A stretch of DNA of 32,000 nt from contig JBBDQS010000048.1 in assembly GCA_040905805.1 (NCBI GenBank), forward strand, positions 1 to 32,000. The letters run 5' to 3'. Source of the DNA: Egibacteraceae bacterium (GTDB lineage: Bacteria > Actinomycetota > Nitriliruptoria > Euzebyales > Egibacteraceae). The first letter of the stretch is position 1. Every line of letters begins with the position of its first letter. A program made the position numbers and the translations under genes. Positions 1-25,400 of this stretch are shown in pieces. Under the pieces are notes generated by a model. The model did not search any database, had not been told where the DNA came from, and was given only the letters and a program-made list of their open reading frames with translations.

Positions 1-424
1 CCCCCCCACACCCGGCACAGCAGAGAATCGCCCTCGCGGGCTCGGGCGATTCACGAGTCAGCCGGGTGTCGCTCATCAGGCCCGCCTCACCTCCACCGCT
101 TGCTCCGACGCGTGCATCATAACCCGGGGCTCCACCGTGACCGCTTGCCGGTTCCGACGAGATGCCTGGTACGGGCGCTACCGCTGCGCGACGTGGGCGC
201 CTGGGGGCTGAGCTCGGCCGCCGGCAGAATTCCCCCCCTGACACTGGTGTGGAGTTGTATGATGCTGCTCCTTGCAACGTCGCGGTGCCCACCACGGTGG
301 CGTCCGCGGGCTCTGTTCCAAGGGACCGAGGTGTGCGGCGGGCAGGGTCGGGAGGCGAGCGAGCGACCGGGGCGGCTTGGCAGCGTGCCACCGCCGGTCC
401 GGCGCTCGGGCGAGGGGTCGGAGC

Positions 425-1195
425 ATGAAGCTGTCAGGTCGGGTCGCCCTGGTCACCGGGGCATCGCGTGGGATCGGGCGGGCCATCGCGTCGGCGCTCG
501 CGGCGGAGGGTGCGGCGGTGGCGGTCAACTACCGCTCCCGTCAATCCGAGGCCGACGAGGTCGTGCGCGAGATCGAGGATGGCGGAGGCAAGGCGATCGC
601 GGTCGGCGGCGACGTGGCCGACTACGAGGCGGCCGGCCGCATCGTCGAGGAGACCATCGGCGGGCTCGGCGGGTTGCACGTGCTCGTGAACAACGCGGGA
701 ATCGCTCGCGACGCGCTGATCTTCAACATGGAGCCCGAGGACTGGCTCGACGTCATGAAGGTCAACTTCGGCGGCGTGTTCAACTGCACGAAGGCCGTCA
801 TGTCCCACTTCATGGCGCAGCGAGACGGCGTCATCGTCAACATCTCCTCGGTCATGGGCGAACGCGGATGGACCGGCGAGTCGAACTACGCCGCCTCCAA
901 AGCCGCGGTCAACGCTTTCACCCGGTGCGCCTCCCTCGAGCTCGCGCGCTTCGGCATCCGCGTGAACGCGGTCCTGCCCGGCTTCGCCCCCACGGACCTC
1001 GTCGCCGGCCTCGTCGAGCGTGACGGCGGCAAGGGCATCAAGAAGCAGCTGCCGATGCGCGCGCTCGGCAAGGTCGAGGAGATCGCCAACGTCGCGACCT
1101 TCCTCGCCGGACCCGACTCGAGCTACATGACCGGCACCCTGGTCCCCGTCGACGGTGGCGCACAGGCGGTGCTGGGCCTCGGCCGGCCGGACTAG
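425..1195 (+). CDS. fabG: SDR-family 3-oxoacyl-ACP reductase (ketoreductase, FabG-like)
   Basis: ATG at 425 lies in frame inside track ORF 272..1195 and is preceded by GAGGGG..GGAG. Motifs: Rossmann 'VALVTGASRGIGRAIA', 'NNAG', and catalytic 'SNYAASKAAV' (YxxxK). The 51 upstream codons of the ORF are Arg/Gly junk. Confidence 0.9.
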   Translation: MKLSGRVALVTGASRGIGRAIASALAAEGAAVAVNYRSRQSEADEVVREIEDGGGKAIAVGGDVADYEAAGRIVEETIGGLGGLHVLVNNAGIARDALIFNMEPEDWLDVMKVNFGGVFNCTKAVMSHFMAQRDGVIVNISSVMGERGWTGESNYAASKAAVNAFTRCASLELARFGIRVNAVLPGFAPTDLVAGLVERDGGKGIKKQLPMRALGKVEEIANVATFLAGPDSSYMTGTLVPVDGGAQAVLGLGRPD

Positions 1196-1236
1196 GTTCC
1201 TCCGCAGGAGCTCCGCTACAGGAAAGGATCCGAGAA

Positions 1237-1647
1237 ATGACGCAGTTGACGAAAGACAAGATCAGCAGCGAGGTGCAGACGGCCGTGGCCGAGGCGCTCG
1301 CCCTCGAGGACGACGAGGTGACACTGGACGCCACCCTGATGGACGAGCTCGGCGCCGAGTCGATCGACCTGCTCGACATCCTGTTCCGGCTCGAACGGTC
1401 CCTCGGTGTGAAGATCCAGGCCTCGGACCTGGCCGACCACCTCCAGGGCGGCATCCCCGACGAGGAGTTCTCCGACGAGAACGAGATCATCAACGATCGC
1501 GGTCTGGCCCAGCTGAAGACCGCCATGCCGCAGATCGACACCGACGAGCTGTCGGGCAACCTCAAGGCCGAGGACGTCATCAACCTGTTCACGGTCCAGA
1601 ACCTGGTGGACATGGTCGCGGCCCGTGCCGAAACCTCCGCCGGCTGA
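1237..1647 (+). CDS. Acyl carrier protein, unusually long (136 aa)
   Basis: ATG at 1237 with GGAAAGGA 9 nt upstream. The protein is acidic and has the phosphopantetheine-attachment motif 'LGAESIDLLDILFRLE'. A helix-IV-like 'VINLFTVQNLVDMV' appears only after an insert of about 45-50 aa. Confidence 0.85.
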   Translation: MTQLTKDKISSEVQTAVAEALALEDDEVTLDATLMDELGAESIDLLDILFRLERSLGVKIQASDLADHLQGGIPDEEFSDENEIINDRGLAQLKTAMPQIDTDELSGNLKAEDVINLFTVQNLVDMVAARAETSAG

Positions 1648-2041
1648 GGGCGAGCAGGCCAGTCCGACCATTCGGGTCGGCATCGACATCGTCAGCATCG
1701 GTCGGGTCGAGCGCTTGCTGAGCGAGCAGCCCGCCGTCACGCAACGGGTGTTCACCGATCGCGAGCTCGAAGGCCTCGGCGGTCGTCGGCGGGTCCAACG
1801 GTTGGCCGGGCGCTTCGCCGCGAAGGAGGCGGTGCTGAAGGCCTTCGGCACCGGCCTCGGCCCGAGGATGAACTGGACCGACGTGGAGATCACGAGCGAA
1901 CCGGGTGGCCGACCCAGGGTGCGCCTGGGCGGGGCGGTGGCGGCGGCGGCACGACGCGGCGGGCTCGCGTCCGTGGACGTCTCCGTGGCGCACACCGGCG
2001 ATCTCGCCGTCGCCCACGCCATCGCGGTCTACCCGCGCTGA
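1625..2041 (+). CDS. acpS: Holo-ACP synthase (AcpS-type 4'-phosphopantetheinyl transferase)
   Basis: 'IRVGIDIVSIGRVERLL' and 'RFAAKEAVLKAFG' are typical AcpS motifs. GTG 1625 is the only canonical in-frame start upstream of GIDIV, and it overlaps the ACP gene by 23 nt. Confidence 0.8.
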   Translation: MPKPPPAEGEQASPTIRVGIDIVSIGRVERLLSEQPAVTQRVFTDRELEGLGGRRRVQRLAGRFAAKEAVLKAFGTGLGPRMNWTDVEITSEPGGRPRVRLGGAVAAAARRGGLASVDVSVAHTGDLAVAHAIAVYPR

Positions 2042-2057
2042 ATCGGGAGGCAAGAGG

Positions 2058-2510
2058 ATGCGCTTTCATCTCATCGACCGGATCGACAGCTACGAGCCGT
2101 CGACCGTCGTGCGGGCACGCAAGGTGACGTCGGTGAGCGAGTCGTACTGGGAGGACTCGCCGGCGGGCCCGATCATGCCCCCGCCGCTCGTGCTCGAGGC
2201 GCTGTGCCAGGCGGGGACCTGGCTGATCATGATCTCCACCGACACGCGCAAGCGCGCCGCGTTGCTCTCCGTCGCGTCGGTGTCCTTCCTCGCCGACGTG
2301 GAACCCGGAGATGTGATCGACCTCGTCGGCACGGTCGAGTCCATGACCGACGAGATGGCGGTTCTCTCGGGGACGGCCACCGTCGGGGACACCGCGGTGA
2401 TGGAGGCCCGCGACATCATGTGCGCGCTGATCGACGCCGAGGACCTCCAGGGCATCGAGGACACCAACCGCCTGCGCGACACGCTCCTGCGCGACGTGGT
2501 GGCGACATGA
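2058..2510 (+). CDS. Hot-dog fold FabZ/FabA-like dehydratase subunit lacking the catalytic His (Glu retained)
   Basis: ATG 2058 lies inside track ORF 1905..2510, with GGGAGG 8-13 nt upstream. The core 'FHLIDRI...WEDSPAGPIMPPPLVLEALCQAG' aligns to the FabZ motif HFPxxPhMPGVLxxEAxAQ but has no His. Confidence 0.75.
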   Translation: MRFHLIDRIDSYEPSTVVRARKVTSVSESYWEDSPAGPIMPPPLVLEALCQAGTWLIMISTDTRKRAALLSVASVSFLADVEPGDVIDLVGTVESMTDEMAVLSGTATVGDTAVMEARDIMCALIDAEDLQGIEDTNRLRDTLLRDVVAT

Positions 2511-3778
2511 AGCGGGTGGCGATCACCGGGATCGGTGCGGTCACGCCGCTCGGCAACGACGCCAAGACGACCTGGGCGGGGCTGATCGAGGGTCGCAGCG
2601 GCGTCACCCGGATCAGCACGTTCGACCCCGAGGGCTTCCCCGTGCGCATCGCCGGGACCGTGACCGACTTCGAGCTGGACCCGAGCTACGCCGACGAGAG
2701 CATGCGACGCCACCTGTCCCGCTCGGCGTCGTTCGGCCTGGCGGCCGCCGCCGAGGCGCTCGACTCCGCCGGGCTCGCCGACGCCTACCCGCCCGCGAGC
2801 CGCGGCGTGTCGGTCGCCAGCAGCGTGGGCCGACCGGAGCTGCAAGAGGTCAGCGACATCCTCGAGGAGTACGCCCGCACCGAGGGACGGCGGGTCCCGA
2901 GACAGTCGCCGTCCAGCGTCTTGCTGCGCGACCAGAACGTGGGCGCCCTGGCCATCAGCCGCTACGGTGACTGCCAGGGTCCGATGGTGAACATCAGCAC
3001 GGCCTGCGCCGGCGCGGTGCACGCGATCGGCGAGGGCTTCCGCCTGGTCCAGGAGGGCGACGCGAGCATGGTCGTCACCGGTGGGTACGACGCCCTGACG
3101 ACGTGGATGGACGTGTTGGGCTTCGCCCTCCTGGGGGCCCTGACGACCGAGTATGAGGACGAGCCGGAGCGCGCGTCACGGCCCTTCAGCGCCGACCGGG
3201 CCGGCTTCGTGATCGGCGAGGGGTCCGTCATGGTCGTGCTCGAGGACCTCGACGGCGCCCGCGGGCGGGGCGCACCCATCCTCGCCGAGCTCGCCGGATA
3301 CGGCAGCAGCATGAACGCCTACCGGATCACCGACGCGCCGTCGGACGGCAAGGGACCGGACGCCGCCATGGCCGCGGCCCTGCGGGAGTCGGGTCTCGAC
3401 GCCACCGACATCCACTACATCGCCGGTCACGGCACGGGAACCGCGGGCAACGACCTCTGCGAGACCGTCGCGATCAAGACGGTCTTCGGGCCGCACGCGT
3501 ACGACCTGGCGATCAGCTCCACGAAGTCGATGGCGGGCCACCTCACGTCTGGGGCCGGCGGTCTCGGGCTCCTGGCGACGATGGGCGCGGTGCGCGAACA
3601 CGTCGTCCCCCCGACGATCAACCTGGAGACGCCCGACCCGAAGCTGGACCTCGACTACGTCCCGAACACGGCCAGGCCGATGCGCGTCGACGCGGCGCTC
3701 GTCAACGCCTTCGCCTTCGGCGGCACCAACGCGGCGCTGGTCGTCCGCCGGTCCGACCCCGACGACGTGGAAGGTTGA
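2507..3778 (+). CDS. Beta-ketoacyl-ACP synthase (KS, FabF/KAS-II-like), catalytically complete
   Basis: ATG 2507 overlaps the upstream stop (ATGA). N-terminus is 'MKRVAITGIGAVTPLG'. The Cys-His-His triad is present in 'NISTACAGAVHA', 'AGHGTGTAGND' and 'TKSMAGHLTSGAG'; 'FAFGGTNAALVV' is also present. Confidence 0.9.
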   Translation: MKRVAITGIGAVTPLGNDAKTTWAGLIEGRSGVTRISTFDPEGFPVRIAGTVTDFELDPSYADESMRRHLSRSASFGLAAAAEALDSAGLADAYPPASRGVSVASSVGRPELQEVSDILEEYARTEGRRVPRQSPSSVLLRDQNVGALAISRYGDCQGPMVNISTACAGAVHAIGEGFRLVQEGDASMVVTGGYDALTTWMDVLGFALLGALTTEYEDEPERASRPFSADRAGFVIGEGSVMVVLEDLDGARGRGAPILAELAGYGSSMNAYRITDAPSDGKGPDAAMAAALRESGLDATDIHYIAGHGTGTAGNDLCETVAIKTVFGPHAYDLAISSTKSMAGHLTSGAGGLGLLATMGAVREHVVPPTINLETPDPKLDLDYVPNTARPMRVDAALVNAFAFGGTNAALVVRRSDPDDVEG

Positions 3779-4185
3779 GTCCCGTGCCTGCGCCCCTGGT
3801 CGTCCTCGACCGCGTCCTGAGCCTCGAGCGCGGGAAGCGCGGCAGCGCCATCCGCAACGTGCCGAACAGCCTGATTATCTTCGACACCCATTTCCCCCGC
3901 TTCCCGGTCCTGCCCGGCGTGCTGATTCTCGGCAGCATGGGCCTGCTCGCCGCGAAGGTGCTCGACGAGGGGGACGGGTGGTGGCGTCTCGCCCAGGCCG
4001 AGCGCGTGCGCTTCCGCCACTTCGTGCAACCCGGTGACCAGCTCGCCCTGTCCATCGAGGTCAAGGACGCCACGGCGTCCACGGCGACCTGCACGGCGAC
4101 CGCCAGCGTCGACGGCAAACCCGTCACGACGGTCGGCCGGCTGCGGATGGCCCGGGCGGAGCACGCCGAAGGGGGTGCTCGGTGA
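3775..4185 (+). CDS. FabZ-like hot-dog dehydratase subunit with catalytic His but Gly at the Glu position
   Basis: 'LVVLDRVLSLE...FDTHFPRFPVLPGVLILGSMGLLA' matches the E. coli FabZ core 'FLLVDRVL...[20 protein letters not shown]' closely. The start is TTG 3775 (overlapping the KS stop) or GTG 3784. Confidence 0.8.
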   Translation: MSPVPAPLVVLDRVLSLERGKRGSAIRNVPNSLIIFDTHFPRFPVLPGVLILGSMGLLAAKVLDEGDGWWRLAQAERVRFRHFVQPGDQLALSIEVKDATASTATCTATASVDGKPVTTVGRLRMARAEHAEGGAR

Positions 4186-5456
4186 GAGACGTCGTCGTCA
4201 CGGGCGTCGGCGTGCTCACCGCCCTCGGCGTCGGCGCGGAGGCGACGTGGAGCGGTCTCGTGGAGGGGCGCAGCGGGATCGGGCCGCTCGAAGGGTTCGA
4301 CGCGTCGACCCTGCACACGCGCATCGGTGCCGAGATTTCCGACTTCGACCCCACGGCGTTCGCCGAGCGGCGTTCGCTGCGGCTCATGACCCGCAACGAG
4401 CAGTTCGCCACCGCCGCCGCCAAGCTCGCCGTCGCGGACGCGGGGGCCGACCTGACCACCATCGACCCCTTGCGCACGGCGGCCTTCCTCGGTGGCAACA
4501 AGGAGATCTCCAACCCGATGAAGGTCGCCGACGCGATCCTCGCCTCACGCGGCCCCGACGGCGTGGCGACGATGGCCCGGCTGGCAACCGACGGTGTCAA
4601 GCAGTTCCACCCGTTGTTCTACGTCGAGGGCCTGCAGGCAGGGGCGCTGTTCTACGTCTCGGAGGCGTTCGGGATGAAGGGCGCCAACGCCTACTTCCAC
4701 GGCACCGCGGACTCGGGGATGACCGCGATCGGGCGGGCCTTCCGCGCCGTCCGCCGCGGCGAGGCGGACGTCGCCGTCGCCGGGGGGTTCGACGAAGCGG
4801 TCTCCTGGTGGTCGATGGCCAAGATGGACGGGCTCGGGGTGCTTTCCACCCGCAACGACCTCGGCGCCGAGGCCTTCCGGCCCTACGACCGCGACCGCAG
4901 CGGCTCGGTGCTCGGCGAGGGAGCGGCCGTCGTCGTGCTGGAGACCGCCGAGCAGGCCAAGGCCCGCGACGCCAACGTGTACGCCAAGGTCGTGGGCTTC
5001 GGCGGGGGCAACGACGCGGAAGGCCTGCTGACCCCCAATCCCGAAGGCCGTGGTCTGGTCAACGCGGTCCGTGCCGCCCTGCGCGACGCCGGCGACGACC
5101 TCGGCGCGATCGACTACGTGGCCACGCACGGGGCCGCGACCCGGCTGGGCGACCCGAGCGAGACGCTCGCCCTGCGCACGGCCCTCGGTGCGGCCGCAGA
5201 CGACGTGATGGCGAGCAGCATCAAGCCGGCCACCGGCCACCTCGTCGCGGCGGCCGGCGCACTCAACGTCGCCGTGGCGGCGCTGGCGGTCCGCCACGGT
5301 GTGGTGCCGCCGACGCTCAACCTCACGGACCCGGACCGCCACTGCGACCTCGACTGGGTCCCCGGGTCGGCGCGCGAGACCCCGGTCAACGGCGCCCTCG
5401 CGCTCGCGCGCGGCCTCGAGGGCCAGAACGTCGCGCTCGCCTTGCGGGCGGTGTGA
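4182..5456 (+). CDS. KS-like protein without active-site Cys (chain-length-factor-like partner; Asp at the Cys position)
   Basis: GTG 4182 overlaps the upstream stop (GTGA). It has the KS fold ('MRDVVVTGVGVLTALG', 'RPYDRDRSGSVLGEGAAVVVLE'). The nucleophile site reads 'FHGTADSGMTAIG', while both His are kept ('ATHGAAT', 'KPATGHLVAAAG'). Confidence 0.85.
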   Translation: MRDVVVTGVGVLTALGVGAEATWSGLVEGRSGIGPLEGFDASTLHTRIGAEISDFDPTAFAERRSLRLMTRNEQFATAAAKLAVADAGADLTTIDPLRTAAFLGGNKEISNPMKVADAILASRGPDGVATMARLATDGVKQFHPLFYVEGLQAGALFYVSEAFGMKGANAYFHGTADSGMTAIGRAFRAVRRGEADVAVAGGFDEAVSWWSMAKMDGLGVLSTRNDLGAEAFRPYDRDRSGSVLGEGAAVVVLETAEQAKARDANVYAKVVGFGGGNDAEGLLTPNPEGRGLVNAVRAALRDAGDDLGAIDYVATHGAATRLGDPSETLALRTALGAAADDVMASSIKPATGHLVAAAGALNVAVAALAVRHGVVPPTLNLTDPDRHCDLDWVPGSARETPVNGALALARGLEGQNVALALRAV

Positions 5457-5480
5457 CAACCACAGACAGGAGGAGATCCG

Positions 5481-7823
5481 ATGGCGACAGAGACTTCCCA
5501 CCCGGTTCGGGTGATGGTCGCGGGCCTCGGGGCCGTCACGTCCCAGGGCGCGACGCAGGCGTCGTTCTGGGATGGGGTCAAGAACGGGCGGGTGGCGATC
5601 CGTCCCGTCAACCACCTGCCCATGGACGGCTACCGTACGCGGATCGCGGGCGAGGTCGCCGAGGTCCCCACGCCCAAGCACGACTACCTCAGGCCGGGTG
5701 GCTTCTCCGACCGTGCCTACGACTTCGCGCTCACCGCGGCCGAGGAGGCATTCGACGCCGCGGGCATCGACTTCGACGCCGTTGCCCCTGAGCGCTGGGG
5801 GGTGGTCGTCGGCACCTGCAACGCGGGGCTCCTGAGCGGCGCCCACTGGTTCCGCCAGCGCATGAACAACCGGGAACCCGACCCGAGGCTCGTGCTGCTC
5901 GTGCCGCCGCAAGCCATCGCCGAGGCGATCGCCGGGGCGTACGGGTTGCGGGGCCCCGTCCTGTCGGTGGACACCGCCTGCGCCGCCGGGGCGAACGCCA
6001 TCGGCTACGGCGCCGAGCTCATCCGCCGCGGTCAGGCCGACGCCGTCGTGACCGGGGGCACCGACGGACTCTCAGACGTCCTCCTGGCCGGGTTCAACTC
6101 GCTCGAGTCGCTCTCGCCCGAGCCGGCCGCGCCGTACTCGAAGGACCGCCAGGGCCTGTCACTCGGTGAGGGCAGCGGCATGCTGGTGCTCGTCCGCGAC
6201 GACATCGCCGAGCGGCTCGGCGCCCCCATGCTGGCTGAGGTCGCGGGCTACAGCCTGTCGGCGGACGGCTACCACGCGACGGCACCGCATCCGGAGGGCT
6301 TCGGGGCGGCACGGGCCATCCAGGGCGCGCTGCGCGCCGCGGGCGTCTCCACGGCCGACGTGGACTACGTGAACAGCCACGGCACCGGTACGTCGAAGAA
6401 CGACCCTGCGGAGACCAGGGCGACCAAGGTGGGGCTCGGCGAGGAGGACGCCCGGCGGGTCGCGGTGAGCAGCACCAAGTCCATGGTCGGGCACCTCCTC
6501 GGCGCCGCGGGGGCGGTGGAGGGCATCGTGACGGTCCGGGCGATCGAGGAGCAGCTCGCCCCGCCGACCGCCAACTTCACCGAGGCGGACCCGGACTGCG
6601 ACCTCGACTACGTGCCGAACGTGAACCGGGCCATGACCATCGACGTGGCGGTGTCGAACAACTTCGCCTTCGGCGGCGCCAACTGCTCCGTCGTGTTCAG
6701 AGCGCCCGGGGCCGCCGTTGCCGCCCACGCCGTCCCGCCGCCTGATCGGGTGGTGGTGACCGGGATCGGGGCCCTGACTGCGGCCGGGACGACGCTCGAG
6801 GCGCTGTACGAGGCGGCGGCCGGCGGCCGTGACCTCACCGTGTCCGAGGACGGCGTCCCACTCGGCCGGGTCGACGTGCGGCCGGGTGACTTCCTCACCC
6901 CCCGCGAGCGCAAGCGCGTCGATCGGCTCGGGGTCTTCTCGATCATCGCCGCCCGCTCGGCCCTCACCGACGCGGGCATCGAGATCGAGGAGGGCAACCG
7001 CGAGCGTGTCGGTGTGATCCTCGGCACCGGTGTCGGCCCGATGGAGTCGATGGAGGACTTCTCCGCTCCGCTGTTCGCCGAGGGGCCGCGAGCGGCCAAC
7101 CCCGCGATCTTCCCCAACACCGTGTACAACGCCGCGGCGGGACAGGTCGCCATCAAGGTCGGGGTGGTGGGTCCGACGACCACCGTCACGGCCGGCCATG
7201 CGGCAGGCTCGTCCTCGCTTGTCTGTGCCTACGACCTCGCGGCCGCAGACCATGCGGACGTGCTGATCGCGCTCGGGGCAGATGCGCTGACCGACACGGT
7301 CATCGCCGCCTACCGGGGGCTCGGGGTGCTGGGCGACGGCAGCGGGAAGGGCTTCCCGCTGGCGGAGGCCGGCGTGGCGCTGGTGTGCGAGCGCCATGGC
7401 GCCGCGGCGGCCCGGGGACACATCCCCTACGGGGAGATCCTCGGCTACGGGATCGCCTCCGACGGTCTCGGCATCGGACGGTGGGACCCTGAGGGAAACG
7501 GCATGGAGCGGGCGATGCGCCTGGCGTTGGAGCAGGCCGGGCTGGAGGCCGACCGGATCGAGGCGGTGTACGCGAGCGCCGCCGGGTTGGCGGAGGCCGA
7601 CGAGCCGGAGGCCGGCGCCATCCGGCGGGTGTTCGGCGACGGGGCCGAGGTCGTCGAGGTCAAGCGGCGGCTCGGGGAGCCGATGGGCGCCGGCGGCAGC
7701 CTGTGCGCGGCTCTGGCCCTGGAGGCGTTCCGGCGCGGGGACCGTGTGAATCCCGTCGTGGTCAACTCGAGCTCGCTCGGCGGCACGCACTTCGCGGTGG
7801 TGCTCGGCCCCGCCGGTGGATAG
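5481..7823 (+). CDS. Didomain protein: complete KS (aa ~1-410) fused to a fully degenerate KS-like domain (aa ~425-780)
   Basis: RBS AGGAGGAG lies upstream of ATG 5481. The N-terminal half has 'VDTACAAGANAIG', 'NSHGTGTSKND', 'TKSMVGHLLGAAG' and 'FAFGGANCSVVF'. The C-terminal half starts again with 'RVVVTGIGALTAAG' but reads 'TVTAGHAAGSS', 'YASAAGLAEAD' and 'LGEPMGAGG' at the Cys/His/His sites. Confidence 0.85.
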   Translation: MATETSHPVRVMVAGLGAVTSQGATQASFWDGVKNGRVAIRPVNHLPMDGYRTRIAGEVAEVPTPKHDYLRPGGFSDRAYDFALTAAEEAFDAAGIDFDAVAPERWGVVVGTCNAGLLSGAHWFRQRMNNREPDPRLVLLVPPQAIAEAIAGAYGLRGPVLSVDTACAAGANAIGYGAELIRRGQADAVVTGGTDGLSDVLLAGFNSLESLSPEPAAPYSKDRQGLSLGEGSGMLVLVRDDIAERLGAPMLAEVAGYSLSADGYHATAPHPEGFGAARAIQGALRAAGVSTADVDYVNSHGTGTSKNDPAETRATKVGLGEEDARRVAVSSTKSMVGHLLGAAGAVEGIVTVRAIEEQLAPPTANFTEADPDCDLDYVPNVNRAMTIDVAVSNNFAFGGANCSVVFRAPGAAVAAHAVPPPDRVVVTGIGALTAAGTTLEALYEAAAGGRDLTVSEDGVPLGRVDVRPGDFLTPRERKRVDRLGVFSIIAARSALTDAGIEIEEGNRERVGVILGTGVGPMESMEDFSAPLFAEGPRAANPAIFPNTVYNAAAGQVAIKVGVVGPTTTVTAGHAAGSSSLVCAYDLAAADHADVLIALGADALTDTVIAAYRGLGVLGDGSGKGFPLAEAGVALVCERHGAAAARGHIPYGEILGYGIASDGLGIGRWDPEGNGMERAMRLALEQAGLEADRIEAVYASAAGLAEADEPEAGAIRRVFGDGAEVVEVKRRLGEPMGAGGSLCAALALEAFRRGDRVNPVVVNSSSLGGTHFAVVLGPAGG

Positions 7824-7832
7824 ACCTCGGCG

Positions 7833-9380
7833 GTGACGACCACGGATCCCACCGCAGACACCTACGACGTCATCGTCGTGGGCGCGGGGCTCGGCGGGCT
7901 GTCGGCCGCCGCGCTCCTGGCCAAGGCCGGGCAGCACGTGCTCGTCGTCGAGCGCCAGGACGGGCCGGGTGGGTACGCGCATACGTTCCGCCGCGACGGG
8001 CGGGTCTTCGACCCGGCCATCCACGTCCTCGTGGAGGGCAAGGAGGGACGCAGCGTCGACCTGCTGCTGCGCCACCTCGAGGTGCGGGAGCGCTGCGACC
8101 TCGTCCGTCTTCCCGACCTCTACCGGACGGCCTTCCCGGACTTCGAGCTGACGGTCCCCTCCGGTCACGACGCGATCATCGACGCGCACGTCAGCCGCTT
8201 CCCCCACGAGGCGGATGGGATCCGGGCGCTCTACGATCTGCACGCCCGCTTCTTCCAGGACGCCACGCACCTGGCCATGCAGGTCTCCCTGCGCAATCTC
8301 GACGACATGGTCCGGGACTTCCCGACGTTCTTCCGTTACCGCAACGCCACCGTCGCCGACGTCCTCGACGAGTGCCTGCAGGATCCCCGCGCCAAGGCGG
8401 TGTGCTCGGCGATGTGGCCGTACCTGGGGCTGCCGCCGTCACGCCTGTCGTTCTTCGTCTTCTCCCAGGTCACCAGCGTGGTGGTCGACGGGGGCTCCTA
8501 CTACAGCCGCGGTAGCTTCCAGCGCGTGGCGGACGCGCTCGTCGAGGCACTCGCCCGCGACGGCGGGGAGCTCGCCGTCGGCACCGAGGTGACCAGCATC
8601 GTCGTGGAGGGGGGCCAGGCGCGCGGTGTGCGGCTGGCTGACGGCCGGCAGCTGCGTGCCCCCGTCGTCATCTCCAACGCCGACGCACGGCTCACGTTCG
8701 AGCAGCTGGTCGGTCCCGAGCACCTGCCGGCGCGGTTCGTCAGGCGTCTCCAGCGCTTCGAGCCCGCCCTGTCGGCCTACGTGCTCTACGCCGCCACCGA
8801 CATGGACCTGGCCGCCGCCGGCGCGGTGCACGAGACCTTCGTCTACCGCCACTGGGACCACGACGACACCTACCGCGACATCCTTGCCGGCGAGCCGGGT
8901 GGGATGTGGGTGAACGTCCCCACGATCGTGGACCCCTCCCTGGCGCCGCCCGGCGAGCACCTGCTCATCCTCACCGCCCTCGCCCCCTACGAGCTCGAGC
9001 GTCCCTGGGACCAGGAGAAGGATCGCTTCAGCGAGTCGGTGATGGCCGATCTCGACCGTCTCTACCCGGGGGTCTGCGGGCACATCACCTTCGCCGAGTC
9101 CGCGACGCCGGAGACGCTCCAGCGGCGCACCCTGAACCACCGCGGCGCAATCTACGGCTGGGCGGTGACGCCCCAGCAGGTGGGCAGCAAGCGCCTCCAC
9201 CACGACACCCCCATCGACGGGCTCTACCTGTCGGGGCACTGGACCGAGGAGGGTCCGAGCTCCTTCCGCGTCCTGCTGTCGGGGGTCATGACAGCCCGGA
9301 TGGTGGCGGCACACCGGGGGCTTGCCCACGACGCGGTCCCGACCTTCCGTCCCACCGACCTCCCCGACCTGGTCGGGTAG
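7833..9380 (+). CDS. Phytoene-desaturase-family (CrtI-like) FAD/NAD(P)-dependent oxidoreductase
   Basis: GTG start. The N-terminal dinucleotide fold 'YDVIVVGAGLGGLSAAALLAKAGQHVLVVERQDGPGGYA' and a C-terminal 'LYLSGHWTEEGPS' FAD motif match the layout typical of the CrtI/amine-oxidase family. Confidence 0.8.
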   Translation: MTTTDPTADTYDVIVVGAGLGGLSAAALLAKAGQHVLVVERQDGPGGYAHTFRRDGRVFDPAIHVLVEGKEGRSVDLLLRHLEVRERCDLVRLPDLYRTAFPDFELTVPSGHDAIIDAHVSRFPHEADGIRALYDLHARFFQDATHLAMQVSLRNLDDMVRDFPTFFRYRNATVADVLDECLQDPRAKAVCSAMWPYLGLPPSRLSFFVFSQVTSVVVDGGSYYSRGSFQRVADALVEALARDGGELAVGTEVTSIVVEGGQARGVRLADGRQLRAPVVISNADARLTFEQLVGPEHLPARFVRRLQRFEPALSAYVLYAATDMDLAAAGAVHETFVYRHWDHDDTYRDILAGEPGGMWVNVPTIVDPSLAPPGEHLLILTALAPYELERPWDQEKDRFSESVMADLDRLYPGVCGHITFAESATPETLQRRTLNHRGAIYGWAVTPQQVGSKRLHHDTPIDGLYLSGHWTEEGPSSFRVLLSGVMTARMVAAHRGLAHDAVPTFRPTDLPDLVG

Positions 9381-9959: not shown

Positions 9960-10403
9960 ATGCCCAGCGCAGCGGACCGTGTCAGGAACGTCTTTCCCTC
10001 GCTCATCCTGCGCTCGCCCCTGCACCCGATCATGAGCGGTCGCTATGCGATCATCGAGTTCACCGGCCGCAAGAGCGGTCGCCGCTACGCCACGCCGATC
10101 GCCTACGTCCGCGACGGCGACCGTGTCCTGCTGTCGACCGACTCGCCGTGGTGGCGCAACGTGGCCGGGGGTGCCCCGGTGCGCCTGCGCTTGCGGGGTC
10201 GCACCGTCGCGGGCACGGCGACGGCGATCACCGACCCCGAGGAGGCCGCGGCCATCATCCGCCGACTGCTCGACGCGATCCCCTCCTATGCCAAACCGGC
10301 GCATCTGGCCCGGGAGGGCGGGCGGGTGAGCGACGCGGAGGTCGCGCGCGGCGTGGCCGCGGGCCGGGTCGGCATCGAGGTCGTCCTCGAGGGGTCGCGG
10401 TGA
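9960..10403 (+). CDS. Deazaflavin (F420)-dependent nitroreductase-family / split-barrel oxidoreductase (DUF385-like)
   Basis: 'FTGRKSGRRYATPIAYVRDGDRVLLSTDSPWWRNV' resembles the GRKSG..tP...W(Y)RN signature of the F420H2-dependent quinone reductase family. GGGAG lies upstream of ATG 9960. Confidence 0.55.
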   Translation: MPSAADRVRNVFPSLILRSPLHPIMSGRYAIIEFTGRKSGRRYATPIAYVRDGDRVLLSTDSPWWRNVAGGAPVRLRLRGRTVAGTATAITDPEEAAAIIRRLLDAIPSYAKPAHLAREGGRVSDAEVARGVAAGRVGIEVVLEGSR

Positions 10404-18410: not shown

Positions 18411-18929
18411 CTAGTCCCGCAGGTACCCGTACCGGCCCCGGTGGAAGATCAAGGGCCGGGGCGCATCCGCATCGGCGCCGATGGCGAGCACCTCACCGAC
18501 GAAGATCTCATGGTCTCCGCCCGGATGCTGGTCCGCCACCCTGCAGTCCATGAACGCGGCCACCCCATCGATGACCGGCGAGCCTGTGACCACCTCGCGG
18601 TGGGGGATCCCGCGGAAGGCGGCGGTGCCCCTGGGGCGATCACGAGACGCGAAGTAGTTGGACAGGACCTCCTGCTCGGCGGTCAGGATGTTGACCGCGA
18701 ACACCCCATTGCGCTCGAGAGCCTCGCTGCCCTGCGTGCCGCTGATGACGCACACGAGGATGAGGGGCGGGTCGAGGGACAGCGACGAGAAGGCATTGGC
18801 GGTCATCCCGTACGGCTCGTCCTGACCCTGCGTGGTGATGACCGTCACGCCGGTTGCGAAGGCCCCCATGACCGCCCGGAACTCCTTGACGCCGAAGGGC
18901 TCCACGGCCAGCTGCTGCAGCCTCTGCAT
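18411..18929 (-). CDS. NAD(P)H-flavin reductase (flavin_reduct domain, HpaC-like)
   Basis: 'FRAVMGAFATGVTVITT...PYGMTANAFSSLSLDPPLILVCV' and 'GDHEIFVGEVL' are typical of small flavin reductase components. The ATG shares one base with the upstream stop (TGATG at 18927-18931). Confidence 0.85.
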   Translation of the reverse strand: MQRLQQLAVEPFGVKEFRAVMGAFATGVTVITTQGQDEPYGMTANAFSSLSLDPPLILVCVISGTQGSEALERNGVFAVNILTAEQEVLSNYFASRDRPRGTAAFRGIPHREVVTGSPVIDGVAAFMDCRVADQHPGGDHEIFVGEVLAIGADADAPRPLIFHRGRYGYLRD

Positions 18930-19819
18930 CAGGCATCTGCCCCAGCGTGCGACGGCCCCCCGCCGAGCTCCCCGAGGCGGCGCTGGATGACGTCGTCGAG
19001 GTTTTGCGTGGTGGACAGCGACTGGGCGACCAGCGACCGGAATGCCTCCCGCGGCATCGCCAAGAGCGTCGTTGGGGCCACTGCCCGAACCGTGGCGGTG
19101 CGGGGGATGTCGCGCAGGATCGCCACCTCGCCGAAGAACTGCCCCGGCCCGAGGGTGGCCACCGTCTGTTGCGAACCGCCGTTCTCGCGGACGACCTCGA
19201 CCTCGCCTTCGACGATGATGAAGAACTTGTCGGCCGGCCCCCCCTGCCGGACGATGACCTCCCCGGACTCCACCTGCACGGTCTGCAGCCGGGCCTGGAG
19301 GCCGGCGATCTCGGCCGGCGGCAGGTCCCGGAGGACGTTGAAGACCTCGGTGCGCTGGAACACCGACCCGAGACCCCTCGCGTTCTCCGGCGCCGCGCTC
19401 GTGTTGTCGATGAACTGCACCCGGGTGGGCGCGATGCGGAAGAACGCGATGTGGCTGTTCTCGGTCCCCGCCACCTCGGGGAACTTCACGCCGAACCGCT
19501 GCACGGCGTGCTCGATCTGCGCGGCGTCGAGGATCTGGCGGGCCTCGCCCTCGCCCTGGATGCCCTTGGTCTGCGTCCAGTCAGCGGTGTACTGGTCGAC
19601 CGTGAAGGACACGGCCGGGTTCTGGTCGATGTGCTGGGCGGTGACGGAGTCCGGCCGGGTCCACACGTACAGCGTCAACCCGTCGCTCGCGTACAGCAGC
19701 GTCGCGGCGTGCGGCAGACCGCCCGACGATGCCGTGGCCAGGGTCAAGGTCTGCTGGGACTCCAGGTATGCCAGCGCCTTGGGCGAGACCTCGGGTGCGG
19801 CATCCTCCGGATCGGTCAT
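18929..19819 (-). CDS. Fusion protein: PNPOx-like FMN-binding split-barrel domain + C-terminal cNMP-binding domain
   Basis: The N-terminal half has 'TLTLATASSGGLPHAATLLYASDGLTLYVWTRPDSVTAQHIDQNPAVSFTV' (pyridoxamine-5'-phosphate-oxidase-like). The C-terminal half has 'VESGEVIVRQGGPADKFFIIVEGEV...LGPGQFFGEVAILRDIPRTATVRA' (CNB). GGAGGGGG lies upstream of the ATG at 19819. Confidence 0.8.
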   Translation of the reverse strand: MTDPEDAAPEVSPKALAYLESQQTLTLATASSGGLPHAATLLYASDGLTLYVWTRPDSVTAQHIDQNPAVSFTVDQYTADWTQTKGIQGEGEARQILDAAQIEHAVQRFGVKFPEVAGTENSHIAFFRIAPTRVQFIDNTSAAPENARGLGSVFQRTEVFNVLRDLPPAEIAGLQARLQTVQVESGEVIVRQGGPADKFFIIVEGEVEVVRENGGSQQTVATLGPGQFFGEVAILRDIPRTATVRAVAPTTLLAMPREAFRSLVAQSLSTTQNLDDVIQRRLGELGGGPSHAGADA

Positions 19820-19865
19820 GGCGTCCCCCTCCAGGAGCGTCGTGCTCGTACCCTATCGCAGCACC

Positions 19866-22343
19866 TCAGATGGCCGTACGGCGCCGCAGCACCAGCCAGG
19901 TGATGGCGGTGAAGGCCACGATGAAGGCACCCATGATGAGCCAGTTCTGCCAGATGGCGCGGGAGAAGCTGTCGCTGTACTGCAGCGCCAACGCCGCTCC
20001 CACGGGGTTCTGGGACTCCTCGAAGAGGTCGAGGAGGTTGGCTGCCCTGCCGAGAGCCTCGAACCCCCACCGCAGTGCGATGATATTGGAGAGCTCGCGA
20101 CCGACGGTGTTCATCTCGGACACCGCGACGATCGCTCCCGACAGCAGCACCTGCGGCAGGATCCACGCCGACAGCAGGTCGGTCGCCACCTGCGACGTGG
20201 GCGCGATGGCCGACGTAAACAGCGAGAAGGCCAGTCCGACCAGGGCGATGACGAAGAGCGTGATCATCAGGGGGGCGTACACGTTCAAGCCCTCGTCGGG
20301 CAGGCGGTCGGTCACCCACATCATCGCCACCATGACCGTGACCGCCAGGGCGAGCACGGGCGCGAGGAACGTGGTCTTCGACAAGAGGTAGGGGAAGACG
20401 GCGAGATTCACCAGCCGCTCTCGTCGGAAGATGGCGAACTCCTTCACGATCTCCTGCACGCCGTACAGCAGGCCGAAGAGGAAGGCGGTCATCGACAGGA
20501 AGAAGAGCAGCTGGAACGCCGACGTGGGGTTGTTGGGCCCCGGTTCGAAGAGGTCCGTGCGGAACAGCGCGATCAGCAGGGCGGCGAAGATCACCGGCTG
20601 GGCGAAGAGCGGGATCATCCGGGGTGGGTTGCGCACGTACAGCTCGGCGGTGCGACGGCTCAGCACGGCGAACTGGCGGACCCACAAGCCCAAGCCGCGA
20701 GCGGGCCGCGCGATCGAGGCCCCCGCCGCGGCCTGCGCGGGCGTCGAATCGGCCGGTCGCTGTTGGTCGGCCTTCATCGCACGGTACTCGGGGGATTCCC
20801 GGAAGCGCGCCGCCCACTCCTCCGGCGTGCCCTCGTTCTCCAGCTTCACGTAGATCTCGTCGAAGACCTCCACGCCGAAGTACTCCAACGCCCGCTTGGG
20901 GGGACCGGCGAATGCCAGGTGGCCGCCGCCTGCGAGGAACACGATCTTGTCGCACAGGCCGACGTTGCTCGTCGCGTGCGTGGTGAGGAGCACGGTGCTG
21001 CCCGCTCGTGCCAGGTCGCGCATCAGCGTCATCATCGAGGCGTCGGTGGCGGGGTCCAGACCTGAAGTGGGCTCGTCGAGGTAGAAGACCCGGGGTCGGG
21101 TCAACAGCTCCACCCCGATGCTGGCCCGCTTGCGCTGCCCGCCGCTCAGCTTGTCGACGCGAAGACCGGCCTGCTCGGTCAGCGAGAGCTCTTCCAGAGC
21201 CCGGTCGACGGCTTTGCCCCGCTCCTCGGGCGTGGTGTCGCCCGGCAGGCGCAGACGCGCGGCGAAGTCCAGCGTGACCCGCAGGGGTAGCTCGGTGTGG
21301 ATGATGTCGTCCTGCGGCACGTACCCGAGCGTCGTGCGGTACAGGGCCCGCTGCGCGTAGTAGTCGCCGCCGTTGTACAGCACCTGCCCGCCGGTGGCGG
21401 GGCGCACGCCCGAGAGGGCGTCCATGAGGGTGCTCTTTCCCGCCCCGCTGCCACCGACGATCGCCACGAGCTCGCCGGGCAGCACCGTCAGCGAGACATT
21501 CTGGAGGAGGTTCTTGCCCTTCGTGACCACCTTGCGCAGCCCGGACGCGTCGATGCGGATCCCGCGTGGTTCCGTGACCCGTTGCAGCTCGCGCCGGTCG
21601 AACAGCAGACGCTGGTCCGCCAACCAGATCTGGTCCCCGTCCTTGAGCTCGGCACGTCGGACCTCCGCGCCGTTCAGGAAGGTGCCGTTCGCGCTGCCGA
21701 GGTCGGCCAGCTCGTAGCTGTCGCCGAAGCGGCGCACCACCGCGTGACGGGCCGACACGACGGTGGAGTCCAGCACGACGTCGTTGTCAGGATGGCGCCC
21801 GATCCGCAGCTCCTGGCGATCCGCGAGCATGGCCGCGAGGTTCAGGTGCTCGATCGCGTACTCCTGCGAGGTGCGGCTCCGAAGCTCGGCCGCCTGCTGG
21901 ACGGCTTCCGCGAGCGCAGGTTGCTGCTCCAGCAGCTGCCGGAAGTCGTTCGCGCCGATCATCCACAGCCGAGCAGCAGTCTCCGCACGCACCGTGGCGC
22001 TGCGGGGCTGGCCGCTGGTCAGGGACATCTCGCCGAAGAACTCCCGGGGCCCCAAGCGAGCGATCGTCTTCGGTGGATCGCCGGAGCCGGCCTGGACCAG
22101 GAGCGTCCCGAGCTCGATCAGGTAGGCCGCGTCGCCGGCGTCACCCTCGCGGACCACGACGTCTCCTGCCGCGACGTCAACGGGCCGCAGCAGCTTCGCG
22201 ACGTCGGGCAGCGACAGGGGGGACAGCAGCTGGAAGATGCCGATCCTGCTCAGCATGTCGATGCGACGGCTGTCGCTTGCCGCCGCCCTGGTCGGGATGG
22301 AAGTCGTGGCGTGGAATGGTGGTTTGTGTTCCTGCCCGACCAT
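19866..22343 (-). CDS. ABC half-transporter (NBD + ABC-2-type TMD) with an N-terminal cNMP-binding + FHA module
   Basis: ATG 22343 has GGAGG 6 nt upstream; the track uses TTG 22349. CNB: 'FFGEMSLTSGQPRSATVRA'. FHA: 'RIGRHPDNDVVLDSTVVSARHAVV...LGSANGTFLNG'. Walker A 'GGSGAGKST', signature 'LSGGQRKR', Walker B 'VFYLDEPTSGLD', followed by about 6 TM helices. Confidence 0.9.
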   Translation of the reverse strand: MVGQEHKPPFHATTSIPTRAAASDSRRIDMLSRIGIFQLLSPLSLPDVAKLLRPVDVAAGDVVVREGDAGDAAYLIELGTLLVQAGSGDPPKTIARLGPREFFGEMSLTSGQPRSATVRAETAARLWMIGANDFRQLLEQQPALAEAVQQAAELRSRTSQEYAIEHLNLAAMLADRQELRIGRHPDNDVVLDSTVVSARHAVVRRFGDSYELADLGSANGTFLNGAEVRRAELKDGDQIWLADQRLLFDRRELQRVTEPRGIRIDASGLRKVVTKGKNLLQNVSLTVLPGELVAIVGGSGAGKSTLMDALSGVRPATGGQVLYNGGDYYAQRALYRTTLGYVPQDDIIHTELPLRVTLDFAARLRLPGDTTPEERGKAVDRALEELSLTEQAGLRVDKLSGGQRKRASIGVELLTRPRVFYLDEPTSGLDPATDASMMTLMRDLARAGSTVLLTTHATSNVGLCDKIVFLAGGGHLAFAGPPKRALEYFGVEVFDEIYVKLENEGTPEEWAARFRESPEYRAMKADQQRPADSTPAQAAAGASIARPARGLGLWVRQFAVLSRRTAELYVRNPPRMIPLFAQPVIFAALLIALFRTDLFEPGPNNPTSAFQLLFFLSMTAFLFGLLYGVQEIVKEFAIFRRERLVNLAVFPYLLSKTTFLAPVLALAVTVMVAMMWVTDRLPDEGLNVYAPLMITLFVIALVGLAFSLFTSAIAPTSQVATDLLSAWILPQVLLSGAIVAVSEMNTVGRELSNIIALRWGFEALGRAANLLDLFEESQNPVGAALALQYSDSFSRAIWQNWLIMGAFIVAFTAITWLVLRRRTAI
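21597..22256 (-). repeat. Copy A of a ~0.66-kb dispersed direct repeat encoding the CNB+FHA module (in the ABC gene)
   Basis: It is collinear at DNA level with 25329-25994. For example, 21611-21654 'gctggtccgccaaccagatctggtccccgtccttgagctcggca' matches 25342-25385 'gctggtccgccagccggatctggtcaccgtccttgagctcggcc'. Confidence 0.7.
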
Positions 22344-22493
22344 GCTCAACCTCCATCAAACGACCCTGATGGCGGACCTCCGTTTGCGGACAGGAACCGC
22401 CCTGAGTTCCCCGACAGGCTTGCCCCGCGTGCAGGTCGGATCGTAGCGCCTCGGAGCCGTCAGGCACAGGTCTGATCCGTTCCTATCCGTGCG

Positions 22494-25400
22494 TCAGCCC
22501 GGGGCAACGGGATCACGGCTCACCAGCGCCAGCAGGGATGGCAGGACCAGCAGCGAGGCTGCCAGCGCCAAGAAGATCATCACCGCCGTGAGCAGGCCAT
22601 ACGAGGCAAAAAGGGGCATGGGCGCGAGGGCGAGGATGCCGAAGCCGAGCATGCTCGAGAGCGCCGACGCCCCGAGCGCCAGGCCGGTGCTGGCCCCGGT
22701 CGCCCGCAGCGCCGCCTCGCGGGTGGAGAACTGGGCGATCTCCTCCCGGTAGCGCATGGTGATGTGGATGGCGAAGTCGATGCCGATGCCGATGGAGATG
22801 GCCCCGATGGTCGCGGTGACGAGGTTGATCGTGAACCCGAACGCGTACATGAACGCGTATAGCCACGCGACGACGAGCAGGATCGGCACGATGCTCACGA
22901 CCGCGTAGCGCAGGCTGCGCATGAAGATCGCGGCGACGAGCAAACAGAGCACGATCGCGATCGGCAGGGAGATCTGCAACGCCCGGGCGATGGCGTCGAG
23001 GCTGGCCTGCCGCGCGAACGGCGCACCGGTCAGCACCGCTGTCGCGGCGGGGTCGATGGCCTGCAGGCGATCCTCCAGGTCGGCCACGAGCGGCTCGAGC
23101 TGGGTCCGGGCCGCCTCGACGCCCTCCTGCCCGCGGGTACCCGTGATCGGGAAGTCGACCCTGCTTGCCTGCGTCTCCCCATCCGGCGACTGGTACAGCA
23201 CCTCCCCGACGGCGTCGGGGGTCCGTGCCAGCCGCGCCTCGTCGGCGGCCACACCGGCCTCGAGCACGGTCGTGTAGACGGCCGCCAGCTGCTCGGCGGT
23301 GTCGGGAAGGCCATCCCCGTCGTCGTCGGTCAGCTCCACACCAGCCGATGCGGCGACGGCCGCGGCGGCGGCAGGGGCCTCGGCGACATCCCGGACGACG
23401 CCGAGGACGCCGTCCTCGAGCTGCACCCTGCCGTCGTCGTCGCGGGCCAGGGCCGGGCTGTCGGCGGCGTGGATCGCATCGACGAACTCCTGCACGGCCG
23501 TGAGCGCGCGAGGATCGGTGAGGTCGCCCTCGAGATACACGATCCCCGGCTCCCCGACGGACCCGGCGAAGTGCTCGTCGATCTTGTCCAGCCCCACGAC
23601 GAAGTCGCTGTCCGGCGTGAAGAAGTCGTTGACGTCGAACTCGGCCGGGACCTGCACCGCGAAGAAGGCACATCCCACCGTGATGCCCAACACGACCGGC
23701 AGCAGCGCCACCCGGTAGCGTGCCAGGCCGGCGACGACGCCACCGAGCGTGGTGGCCAAACGCCCGGGGTCGCTGGCGCGCGGCTCGGACGTCGCCGGCT
23801 CGGTGACCGCACCGTCGGCGGTCACCGGCTGCGGCGATGCGGCCGCGCGACCCGCGATGACGCAGGGGGCGACCAGGAAGGCCACGATGTACAGGCCCAG
23901 CAGGGCGACACCCGCGGCGGGCAGGACGAAGGCGCTCAGCACGACCGACCCCATCGCGGCCCCGGATGCCAGCACCGACCCGACGACGGCCAGCAGCCGC
24001 CGGCGCGGAGACCGCGGTGCCGGCCCGACACGCTCCTCGACGCGCATGAGCACGACCGGGGCCACGATGCCGAGGACCAGGAACGCGGAGAGCAGCCCGA
24101 GCGATGCGGCGATGCCGAACTGCACGATCGACTGGATCCCCGACGACACGTTGGCGAGGAAGGCCGCCGCGTCGGAGCTGAGCGCGAGGACCAGTGCACC
24201 CATCACCCCGCTCATGCCCAGGAGCAGCCCCACCCTCGGGGTCGTGCCGGCTGCCCGCACCTCCTTGTAGCGGCCGAACGCATGGAAGGCGAAGTCCACC
24301 CCGAACGAGATCATCGCGATCGGCACGATGGTGCTGAGGATCTGGTCGGCCTCCATGCCGAGCAGATTGGACAGGCCGTTCAGCCAGACGATCAGCGTCG
24401 CGAGCCCGCCGCCGACGATGGCGACCGGCCAGTAGGACCGGTAGGTCAACCCCACGATGAACAGGACGCCGAGGATCGCGAAGCCGATGAAGGGCCCGGC
24501 TGCCTGCCCCTGCTCCGCGCTGGTGAGGTTCACGTCGATCGCGATGCCCCACGTGCGGCTGTGGGCCTCGCCGCCTTCGAGCACCTCGACGACGTCGCGG
24601 GCGAACTCCTCCTTGGTCGTGTCGTCCACGCCGATCGTGGCCCCGGCCGGCGGCCCCCCGACGGCGTCGTCGTCGGCGAGCACGACGAAGCTGGTGGCCG
24701 GCACCAGCCAGTCGCCGGTGTCCGGGTCGCGCGTCGACTGTGCCGACAGCCCCAGCTCGGCGATCCCCGCGTCCTCGATCAGCCGGCTTGCCGCCGACCG
24801 GACGTCCGCGTCGTTGGCTGCGGCCAAGCCGCCGATGCCGGTCTGCCGGAGCTCGGCGTCCACCATGTCGGCGATCGTGTGGAGGCCGTCCACCTCCATG
24901 TCGGCCTGCGGATCGAAGAAGGACCACAGCTTGGGGCCGATGTCGGGATCGTCGCGCAGGGCCTGGCCGTTGGCGAGCAGTTCCGCAAGGGGTTCGGCGC
25001 GCAGCAGGTCGCCGTCACGGGCCTCCACCACGAATGGGATGAGGAACGTGGGCGACGCGAACCGCTCGTTGACGAAATCGCGGGCCGTGAACACCTCCCC
25101 GGCGGGCTCCTGCGACGCGAAGCCGTCCGGGGGCAGCGCGAGGAACGGGACGGCGAGCAGGGCGGTGGCCGCCAACGCCAGCGCGATGACGATCCCCGAG
25201 CGGCGGGCCATCCAGCGCACGAGCCGCGACGGCTCGTCGGGGTCCCGCTTCGGGACGACCGGCTCGGGGCCAGCCGGCTCCGGCGAAGGGGTCTCACGGC
25301 GCTGATCGCCTCGCTTGAGCCCGCGGACGTCGAAGACGAGGCGCTGGTCCGCCAGCCGGATCTGGTCACCGTCCTTGAGCTCGGCCACGCGCACGGGTGC

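Follow-up and report, generated by a model that had tools for sequence, protein, structure and literature searches.

The dehydratases FabZ and FabA form dimers whose active sites are built across the interface between subunits, each combining the His of one chain with the Glu or Asp on the central helix of the other. Canonical FabZ, a homodimer or hexamer, carries both residues on every chain and has two sites per dimer. Heteromeric hot-dog dehydratases have also been described. ApeI and ApeP of aryl polyene (APE) biosynthesis form a heterodimer with a single active site (PMC8041823), and the mycobacterial HadAB, HadBC and HadBD enzymes have one catalytic site per heterodimer, with the second subunit shaping the binding of the chain (PMC10949391). 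AsuC8/C9 of the asukamycin polyene polyketide synthase (PKS) has been called a ‘heterodimeric dehydratase’ (bioRxiv 10.64898/2026.04.15.718676). The limocrocin cluster encodes Lim8, of 137 amino acids (aa), and Lim9, of 158 aa, under consecutive gene numbers. Here we describe two FabZ-fold proteins, DH1 (150 aa; 2058-2510, plus strand) and DH2 (133 aa; 3784-4185, plus strand), encoded in a 32,000-nucleotide stretch of an Egibacteraceae bacterium (GenBank assembly GCA_040905805.1, contig JBBDQS010000048.1, positions 1 to 32,000), which we refer to as the window. Each of the two lacks the half of the catalytic dyad that the other keeps, and it is probable that together they constitute an obligate heteromeric 3-hydroxyacyl-acyl carrier protein (ACP) dehydratase with one composite active site, DH1 being the proposed donor of the Glu and DH2 of the His.

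The register of both proteins was set with phmmer against solved FabZ structures in the PDB (for example 7qv0, aghFPdfaIMPGVLIVEALAQA, and 5bux) and with MAFFT against E. coli FabZ taken from the public record; the two methods place the residues identically. Around the FabZ core, the DH1 product reads SYWEDSPAGPIMPPPLVLEALCQ and the DH2 product reads THFPRFPVLPGVLILGSMGL. In profile and pairwise alignments, the catalytic His position of FabZ is occupied in DH1 by Asp33 (gac, 2154-2156, plus strand), while the catalytic Glu is kept as Glu47 (gag, 2196-2198, plus strand) in the motif LEALCQ. DH2 is the reverse, with His39 (cat, 3889-3891, plus strand) in the motif HFPRFP and Gly53 (ggc, 3931-3933, plus strand) at the Glu position, both numbered on the 136-aa form that would begin at TTG 3775. 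An earlier reading of the window from its letters alone (the sequence-only reading) had reported this reciprocal loss, and every codon coordinate it gave is exact; no profile alignment places a His in DH1 or an acid in DH2 at the catalytic positions. For DH2, a start at GTG 3784 is more likely than one at TTG 3775, because the resulting 133-aa product is the one called by NCBI on the source contig (JBBDOK010000007.1 of the metagenome-assembled genome GCA_040877135.1, with which the region is identical) and has the length of the closest homologue (P0121); a GGAAGG Shine-Dalgarno sequence lies at 3768-3773. The stop codon of DH1 overlaps the start of the following ketosynthase (KS) gene, KS1, in the sequence ATGA (2507-2510), and that of DH2 overlaps the start of the next KS gene in GTGA (4182-4185). 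These overlaps bear out the tight coupling of the dehydratase genes to the flanking KS genes that had been proposed earlier. With a DH2 start at GTG 3784, the stop of KS1 (3776-3778) is 5 nt away on the upstream side; with a start at TTG 3775, the two overlap.

The division of the dyad extends across both protein families. Over 1000 homologues of each protein (E<=1e-3) are present in a large protein collection, and they come from soil metagenomes, Thermoleophilia, Chloroflexota and Streptomyces plasmids. In family alignments of 180 sequences each, composed of the top 120 matches and the genome orthologues, the position of DH1 Glu47 is always Glu (180/180, zero entropy) and that of DH2 His39 is always His (180/180, zero entropy). 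The column of DH1 that corresponds to the catalytic His is hypervariable (D/E/Q/S/P/T/A/V and others), with an entropy of 2.21 bits that ranks 129 of 150. His at DH1 position 33 was found in none of the 180 aligned sequences and in none of the 62 genome orthologues, and the 180-sequence alignment of DH1 has no invariant His at any position. DH2 position 53 is Gly in 171 of its 180 sequences, Asp in 7 and Ala in 2. The only invariant acids of DH2 are D12, in an LDR motif, and D88, in a PGD motif, which correspond in the alignment to VDR and PGD of E. coli FabZ. Judged from these alignments, the split residue pattern is not a product of chance. A relocated catalytic His in DH1, His4 (MRFHLIDR), was considered and rejected: its counterpart in the first strand of FabZ is hydrophobic, and Tyr replaces it in a Chloroflexota orthologue and in two of the fusion proteins described below (P0318 and P0314). 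Two cysteines of DH1, Cys50 (2205-2207, LEALCQ) and Cys122 (2421-2423, IMCAL), are also invariant in the 180 sequences; the corresponding residues of E. coli FabZ are Ala and Cys (MMCA), respectively. Lining of the tunnel or formation of a disulfide would be candidate roles for the two.

The Glu position of DH2 takes several states. Across the 62 genomic loci that carry the full gene cassette, it is Gly in 56, including the window, and Asp in 5, among them Streptomyces L048, Tengunoibacter L057 and L059. An exhaustive HMMER search with DH2 against 1.84 billion cluster representatives (50% identity) gave 2588 matches, and from the best 150 of these we aligned, with hmmalign, the 57 single-domain proteins that have an HF[PA]R motif. 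The His is invariant in these 57 representatives; at the Glu position, Gly occurs in 18, Asp in 16, Glu in 14, Ala in 5, Gln in 2, and Lys and His in 1 each. Given this variability, DH2 evidently has no need of an acid of its own. Because the position is unconstrained across the family, Gly53 is, on the alignment evidence, one decay state of a vestigial position and not a designed feature.

The HMMER search with DH2 also recovered proteins in which the two halves are joined in a single chain. Three DH1-like::DH2-like fusions (P0318, P0314 and P0287) are 298-303 aa long. In their N-terminal halves, which retain the Glu, the match to DH1 (32-36% identity, E 2e-21 to 5e-23) is nearly full-length and takes in the greater part of the C-terminal extension. 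Their C-terminal halves match DH2 (35-37% identity, E 1e-19 to 1e-22) and retain the His, and the residue at the Glu position is Gln in two fusions and His in one. The stretch equivalent to the C-terminal extension of DH1 comes before the linker that leads into the DH2-like domain. Two of the fusions could be placed on metagenome contigs (L078 702-1598 and L079 3472-4383), where they lie directly after AcpS and, on L079, also with an ACP gene, as DH1 does in the window; no KS gene stands between the fused halves. Among more distant didomain proteins, some combine an N-terminal domain that has the Glu and no His with a C-terminal domain that has the His, and others have the reverse order. The fusions resemble double hot-dog dehydratases, which are single-chain pseudo-dimers, in having one chain with one complete dyad, whereas the halves in the window are encoded separately, on either side of a KS gene. 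In every pair and fusion examined, the site formed by the DH2-type His and the DH1-type Glu is complete. The symmetry-related site is broken in various ways, having either no His together with E, D, G or A, or a His together with Q or H, the DH1-type His position being occupied by His in two of the fusion proteins. Only in two Streptomyces plasmid pairs are both sites possible in principle.

DH1 and DH2 occur together in genomes. We scanned one genome per species with the DH2-family alignment and obtained 65 loci, from Solirubrobacterales, Gaiellales, other Thermoleophilia, Thermomicrobiales, Chloroflexota (Tengunoibacter), Nocardia, Actinomadura, Streptomyces, Rokubacteria and NC10. In 62 of the 65, tblastn identified a cassette in the order KR-ACP-(AcpS)-DH1-KS-DH2-KS(Asp), where KR is a ketoreductase and KS(Asp) is a KS-like protein with Asp in place of the active-site Cys. 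One further locus is interrupted by a contig end. The other two belong to NC10 and have a context like that of fatty acid synthase, in which one FabZ-like protein carries the His as well as the Glu; this protein is a natural outgroup and may resemble the undivided ancestral state. These NC10/Methylomirabilis loci (L062 and L063, ~10001-10390) are the most distant of the 65, with a KR-ACP-DH-KR-KS context. In two look-ups seeded with DH1 homologues, covering three places, DH2 was found two genes downstream, as it is on the source contig. The cassette is also present on Streptomyces linear plasmids, annotated with generic names only. On one of these (L067, Streptomyces sp. NBC_00708 plasmid CP108998.1, 10901-19177 and 22479-25661), the DH1-KS-DH2-KS(Asp) cassette is followed on its 3’ side by a trio of ‘thermostable hemolysin’, AMP-binding and TauD-TfdA genes that resembles an isonitrile-lipopeptide gene set. 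That the arrangement arose when a DH-KS unit was recently duplicated in tandem is not supported, as DH1 and DH2 are each nearer to FabZ than to each other, and KS1 has 39% identity to the N-terminal half of the fused KS and chain-length factor (CLF) protein (KS::CLF) encoded downstream versus 35% to KS2.

These observations suggest a simple mechanism. DH1 and DH2 would associate through a FabZ-type interface, so that His39 of DH2 and Glu47 of DH1 form one working site, and the symmetry-related site, made of DH1 Asp33 and DH2 Gly53, would be dead. The sequence-only reading had further suggested that this second site might act as a pocket for docking the substrate or the ACP. Because neither homodimer would hold a complete dyad in this organism, the pair would be obligate. 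The heterodimer would dehydrate for a polyene-type, type II PKS-like cassette that comprises the KR, the ACP, AcpS, the KS with its KS-like partner and the KS::CLF fusion, and that has no enoyl reductase (ER). Since a KR is present and an ER absent, such a cassette should require a dehydratase. Among the cassette genes and the other open reading frames of the window that were scanned, we found neither an ER nor a third hot-dog protein. We infer the physical heterodimer, its dehydratase chemistry and the polyene product from this pattern. The composite-site heterodimer, which the sequence-only reading had also put forward as an obligate one, is the best supported explanation because of the reciprocal conservation, the strict co-occurrence of the two genes, the absence of any other dehydratase in the cassette and the natural fusions with the same split.

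Some observations weigh against this reading. DH2 of the Streptomyces plasmid orthologues keeps both the His and the Glu, with Glu at the position in question in all four examined (4/4), and the DH1 His position of the same four is H, H, A and A, so that 2/4 have a His there, at the canonical spacing. Given these residues, a single site would not be obligatory for the pair in every lineage, and in the Streptomyces plasmid cases a homodimer of DH2 could be active. In addition, some DH1 homologues have a weak precomputed Pfam match to the 4HBT thioesterase family.

The fold and family assignments place both proteins close to FabZ without making either of them a FabZ. DH1 and DH2 are members of the FabA-like Pfam family PF07977 (32.8 and 56.8 bits, respectively, cutoff 23). 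Their scores to the NCBIfam FabZ equivalogs NF000582 and TIGR01750 (62.7 and 58.6 for DH1, 81.0 and 78.5 for DH2) fall below the cutoffs of 113 and 155, and neither has the His and Glu in one chain that define FabZ proper. AlphaFold2 (AF2) monomer models, with predicted local distance difference test scores of 91.1 for DH1 and 86.5 for DH2, each consist of a single hot dog. For both models, the top 50 Foldseek matches in the PDB are all FabZ-type entries (template modeling (TM) score about 0.7-0.85), with scores to the top FabZ matches of about 0.75 for DH1 and about 0.8 for DH2; the ApeI:ApeP structure 6QSR is not among the top 50 of either. The pair shares with canonical FabZ its fold and motifs (TM 0.75-0.85) and, as proposed, a His/Glu site built at the interface. 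MaoC_dehydratas scored 17.9 bits for DH2, under its cutoff of 27, and gave no match for DH1. Past the FabZ core, DH1 has a C-terminal extension (residues about 127-150; 2436-2507, plus strand) with a helix at 133-144 in the AF2 model and conserved positions L130, T136, R138 and L143. The top structural match of DH2, PDB 9a6k, is an integrative model of the Bacillus subtilis YcsD-FabZ heterocomplex, which suggests that heteromers of FabZ paralogues exist outside PKS clusters.

How does the pair relate to the heteromeric systems already described? Like the window, the ApeI:ApeP systems (Xenorhabdus doucetiae PDB 6QSR; E. coli CFT073) have two small hot-dog proteins with KS/CLF, KR and ACP and no ER. 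In both the E. coli CFT073 and the PDB 6QSR proteins, ApeI supplies the His, in GHF..PLLPGV, as DH2 does in the window. ApeP resembles DH1 in that it lacks a His where the spacing of FabZ would place one and retains the Glu, in ALELMAQ/AIEMMAQ. The two systems differ in the residue that stands at the Glu position of the His donor, which is Asp in ApeI (3/3 sequences) and Gly in DH2. They also differ in gene order, as apeI and apeP lie ~7 kb apart in the CFT073 APE cluster whereas the dehydratase genes of the window are interleaved with KS genes. Finally, DH1 and DH2 are much nearer to FabZ, DH2 being marginally ApeI-like and DH1 not detectably related to ApeP. In hhalign comparisons, the DH1 and DH2 families both match FabZ with 98-99% probability, and the DH2 family matches ApeI with 86% (E 5e-6). 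DH2 matches the ApeI-like model PF22818 weakly (18.9 bits, E 0.0019; cutoff 28.5), and precomputed Pfam assignments list PF22818 for DH2 homologues. DH1 versus ApeP was not significant by blastp, and hhalign of the DH1 family gave a probability of 0.3%, with a sensitivity limited by the single sequence on the ApeP side; on these two comparisons, DH1 was rejected as an ApeP orthologue. By analogy, the window pair appears to work like ApeI:ApeP, and it is not a sequence-level member of either family.

The mycobacterial Had enzymes are likewise heteromeric hot-dog dehydratases, but they belong to the hydratase-2 (MaoC) subfamily and carry the Asp and the His both on HadB, whereas the window pair is of FabZ type with the dyad split between chains. 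The sequence-only reading had regarded this reciprocal loss as sharper than the usual arrangement. Its view holds against HadAB and HadBC, where the whole dyad sits on HadB, and does not hold against ApeI:ApeP, a system it had cited itself, where the split is the same. AsuC8/C9 and the adjacent dehydratase pairs Lim8/Lim9 and SapF/SapG of actinomycete polyene PKS clusters, which we compared by description only, resemble the pair as components of actinobacterial highly reducing PKSs with two FabZ-like proteins. Lim8 and Lim9, compared by size only, are close to DH2 and DH1; their genes are numbered consecutively, unlike DH1 and DH2, which have a KS gene between them. The principle of the split-dyad heterodimer is already known from other bacterial polyene synthases, and the pair brings no new enzymatic principle. 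It is best filed as a new, very widespread, uncharacterised member of the split-dyad heterodimeric dehydratases of polyene-type type II PKSs.

Other explanations for the residue pattern deserve consideration. In one, DH2 would act as a dehydratase by itself, as a homodimer that relies on the His and on water or a nearby residue for the acid, and DH1 would be a thioesterase or a chain binder in the manner of HadA or HadC. The cassette encodes no obvious thioesterase, the weak 4HBT matches of some DH1 homologues point the same way, and the non-catalytic partner in Had enzymes does bind the chain (PMC10949391). We nevertheless consider this unlikely. DH1 of the window has no 4HBT match at E<=0.01, and 4HBT thioesterase was rejected as its identity on that ground; its Glu stands within an intact FabZ helix motif (P-x-M-P...LEALCQ) and is the only acid open to DH2 in most lineages. 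The unconstrained Glu position of DH2 is what would be expected if the acid were given in trans, and the DH1::DH2 fusions argue for one physical unit.

It is also conceivable, though quite improbable, that the heterodimer site does more than dehydrate, either as a FabA-like dehydratase/isomerase that sets Z double bonds or by helping to fold the polyene so that a ring can close. Isomerisation by FabA relies on the same His/acid dyad. Related actinomycete polyene systems require E/Z isomerisation before 6-pi electrocyclisation (PMC6510318, PMC12532209), and the window cluster encodes SnoaL-like cyclases and a CrtI/carotenoid-isomerase-like protein. That latter protein, however, is separately available for isomerisation or desaturation, and DH2 scores much lower with FabA models than with FabZ models, while DH1 has no FabA-model match at E<=0.01. 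DH1 and DH2 both show weak matches to the model of the cispentacin ‘cyclizing decarboxylase’ AmcE, which could be taken to favour additional chemistry, but at 35 bits against a cutoff of 140 they are far under the threshold and are explained by general similarity to FabZ. That both proteins are dead scaffolds or pseudoenzymes, with a housekeeping FabZ performing the dehydration, we regard as very improbable. Each chain alone does lack the full dyad, as this would predict, but the absolute conservation of two complementary residues, in 180 sequences per family and across phyla, would be unexpected for dead proteins.

Returning to the heterodimer with one composite site, a further reading concerns its origin and its second pocket. 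The split dyad may have arisen from FabZ independently of ApeI/ApeP, by convergence, with the second pocket recruited to a new role; we offer the two parts together only tentatively, as a doubtful scenario. An independent origin is possible because both subunits are far nearer to FabZ than to ApeI/ApeP and no relation between DH1 and ApeP could be detected. The vestigial pocket may have been recruited together with the conserved, DH1-specific C-terminal helix and with Cys50 and Cys122, and candidate roles include retention of the growing polyene and docking, either of the ACP or of the KS:KS(Asp) pair, whose genes alternate with the two dehydratase genes. If the pocket has been recruited in this way, the fixed DH-KS-DH-KS gene order would reflect co-translational assembly of a DH:KS super-complex.

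The composite-site heterodimer would have practical consequences. It would allow a very large and uncharacterised collection of ‘FabZ-like’ genes to be annotated by a simple rule based on sequence, such that pairs of this kind would be read as obligate two-subunit dehydratases and not as two redundant copies of FabZ. For in vitro reconstitution of these polyene-type type II PKS pathways, both dehydratase genes would need to be co-expressed. The Glu, Asp, Gly and Ala states of DH2, along with the fusions, would form a natural series in which one symmetric site decays after the transition from homodimer to heterodimer.

The dehydratase genes lie in DNA of 70% G+C, within a single, tightly packed plus-strand operon (422-9380). 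Upstream of DH1, Pfam and NCBIfam matches identify a FabG-type KR (422-1195) and an AcpS-type phosphopantetheinyl transferase (1625-2041), and a Pfam PP-binding domain identifies an ACP of 136 aa (1237-1647). The PP-binding domain of this ACP covers residues 12-68 only and is followed by a long C-terminal extension of ~65 aa; the ACP gene overlaps the start of AcpS by 23 nt. The two KS-type genes adjoining DH2 were assigned by Pfam, NCBIfam and active-site alignment. KS1 (2507-3778) has an intact Cys-His-His triad. Its KS-like partner, KS(Asp) (4182-5456), which likely has a CLF-type role, carries Asp in place of the active-site Cys (GTADSG) and retains the two His residues. The same Cys-to-Asp change is found in the KS-like protein of four Streptomyces plasmid orthologues. 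Because classical CLFs carry Gln at the active-site Cys position, KS(Asp) may be a distinct type of CLF.

Downstream lie two further genes of the plus-strand operon. The first encodes the fused KS::CLF-like protein of 780 aa (5481-7823; Pfam, active-site alignment), whose N-terminal half has a complete Cys-His-His triad and whose degenerate C-terminal half has Gly for Cys and lacks the His residues; this covalent KS::CLF pair is kept in most related loci. The second, directly 3’ of the KS genes, encodes the CrtI/carotenoid-isomerase-like flavoprotein (7833-9380), which matches the carot_isom model at E 5e-54, below the cutoff of that model. A gene of this kind occurs in many related loci at varying positions, and the protein could serve in polyene desaturation or isomerisation. 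On the 3’ side of the operon are genes for two SnoaL-like cyclases, an F420H2-reductase-like protein, a DUF1772/anthrone-oxygenase-like protein and a FAD monooxygenase, and a FabH-like KSIII gene lies on the opposite strand. This gene content matches what would be expected of a highly reducing, polyene-type type II PKS.

Farther along the window, on the minus strand, three adjoining genes (18929-26171) encode cyclic-nucleotide-binding (cNMP-binding) domains in unusual fusions. The first joins such a domain to PNPOx (18929-19819), the second combines it with FHA, an ABC ATPase and an ABC-2 permease (19866-22349), and the third combines it with FHA and an MMPL transporter (22494-26171).

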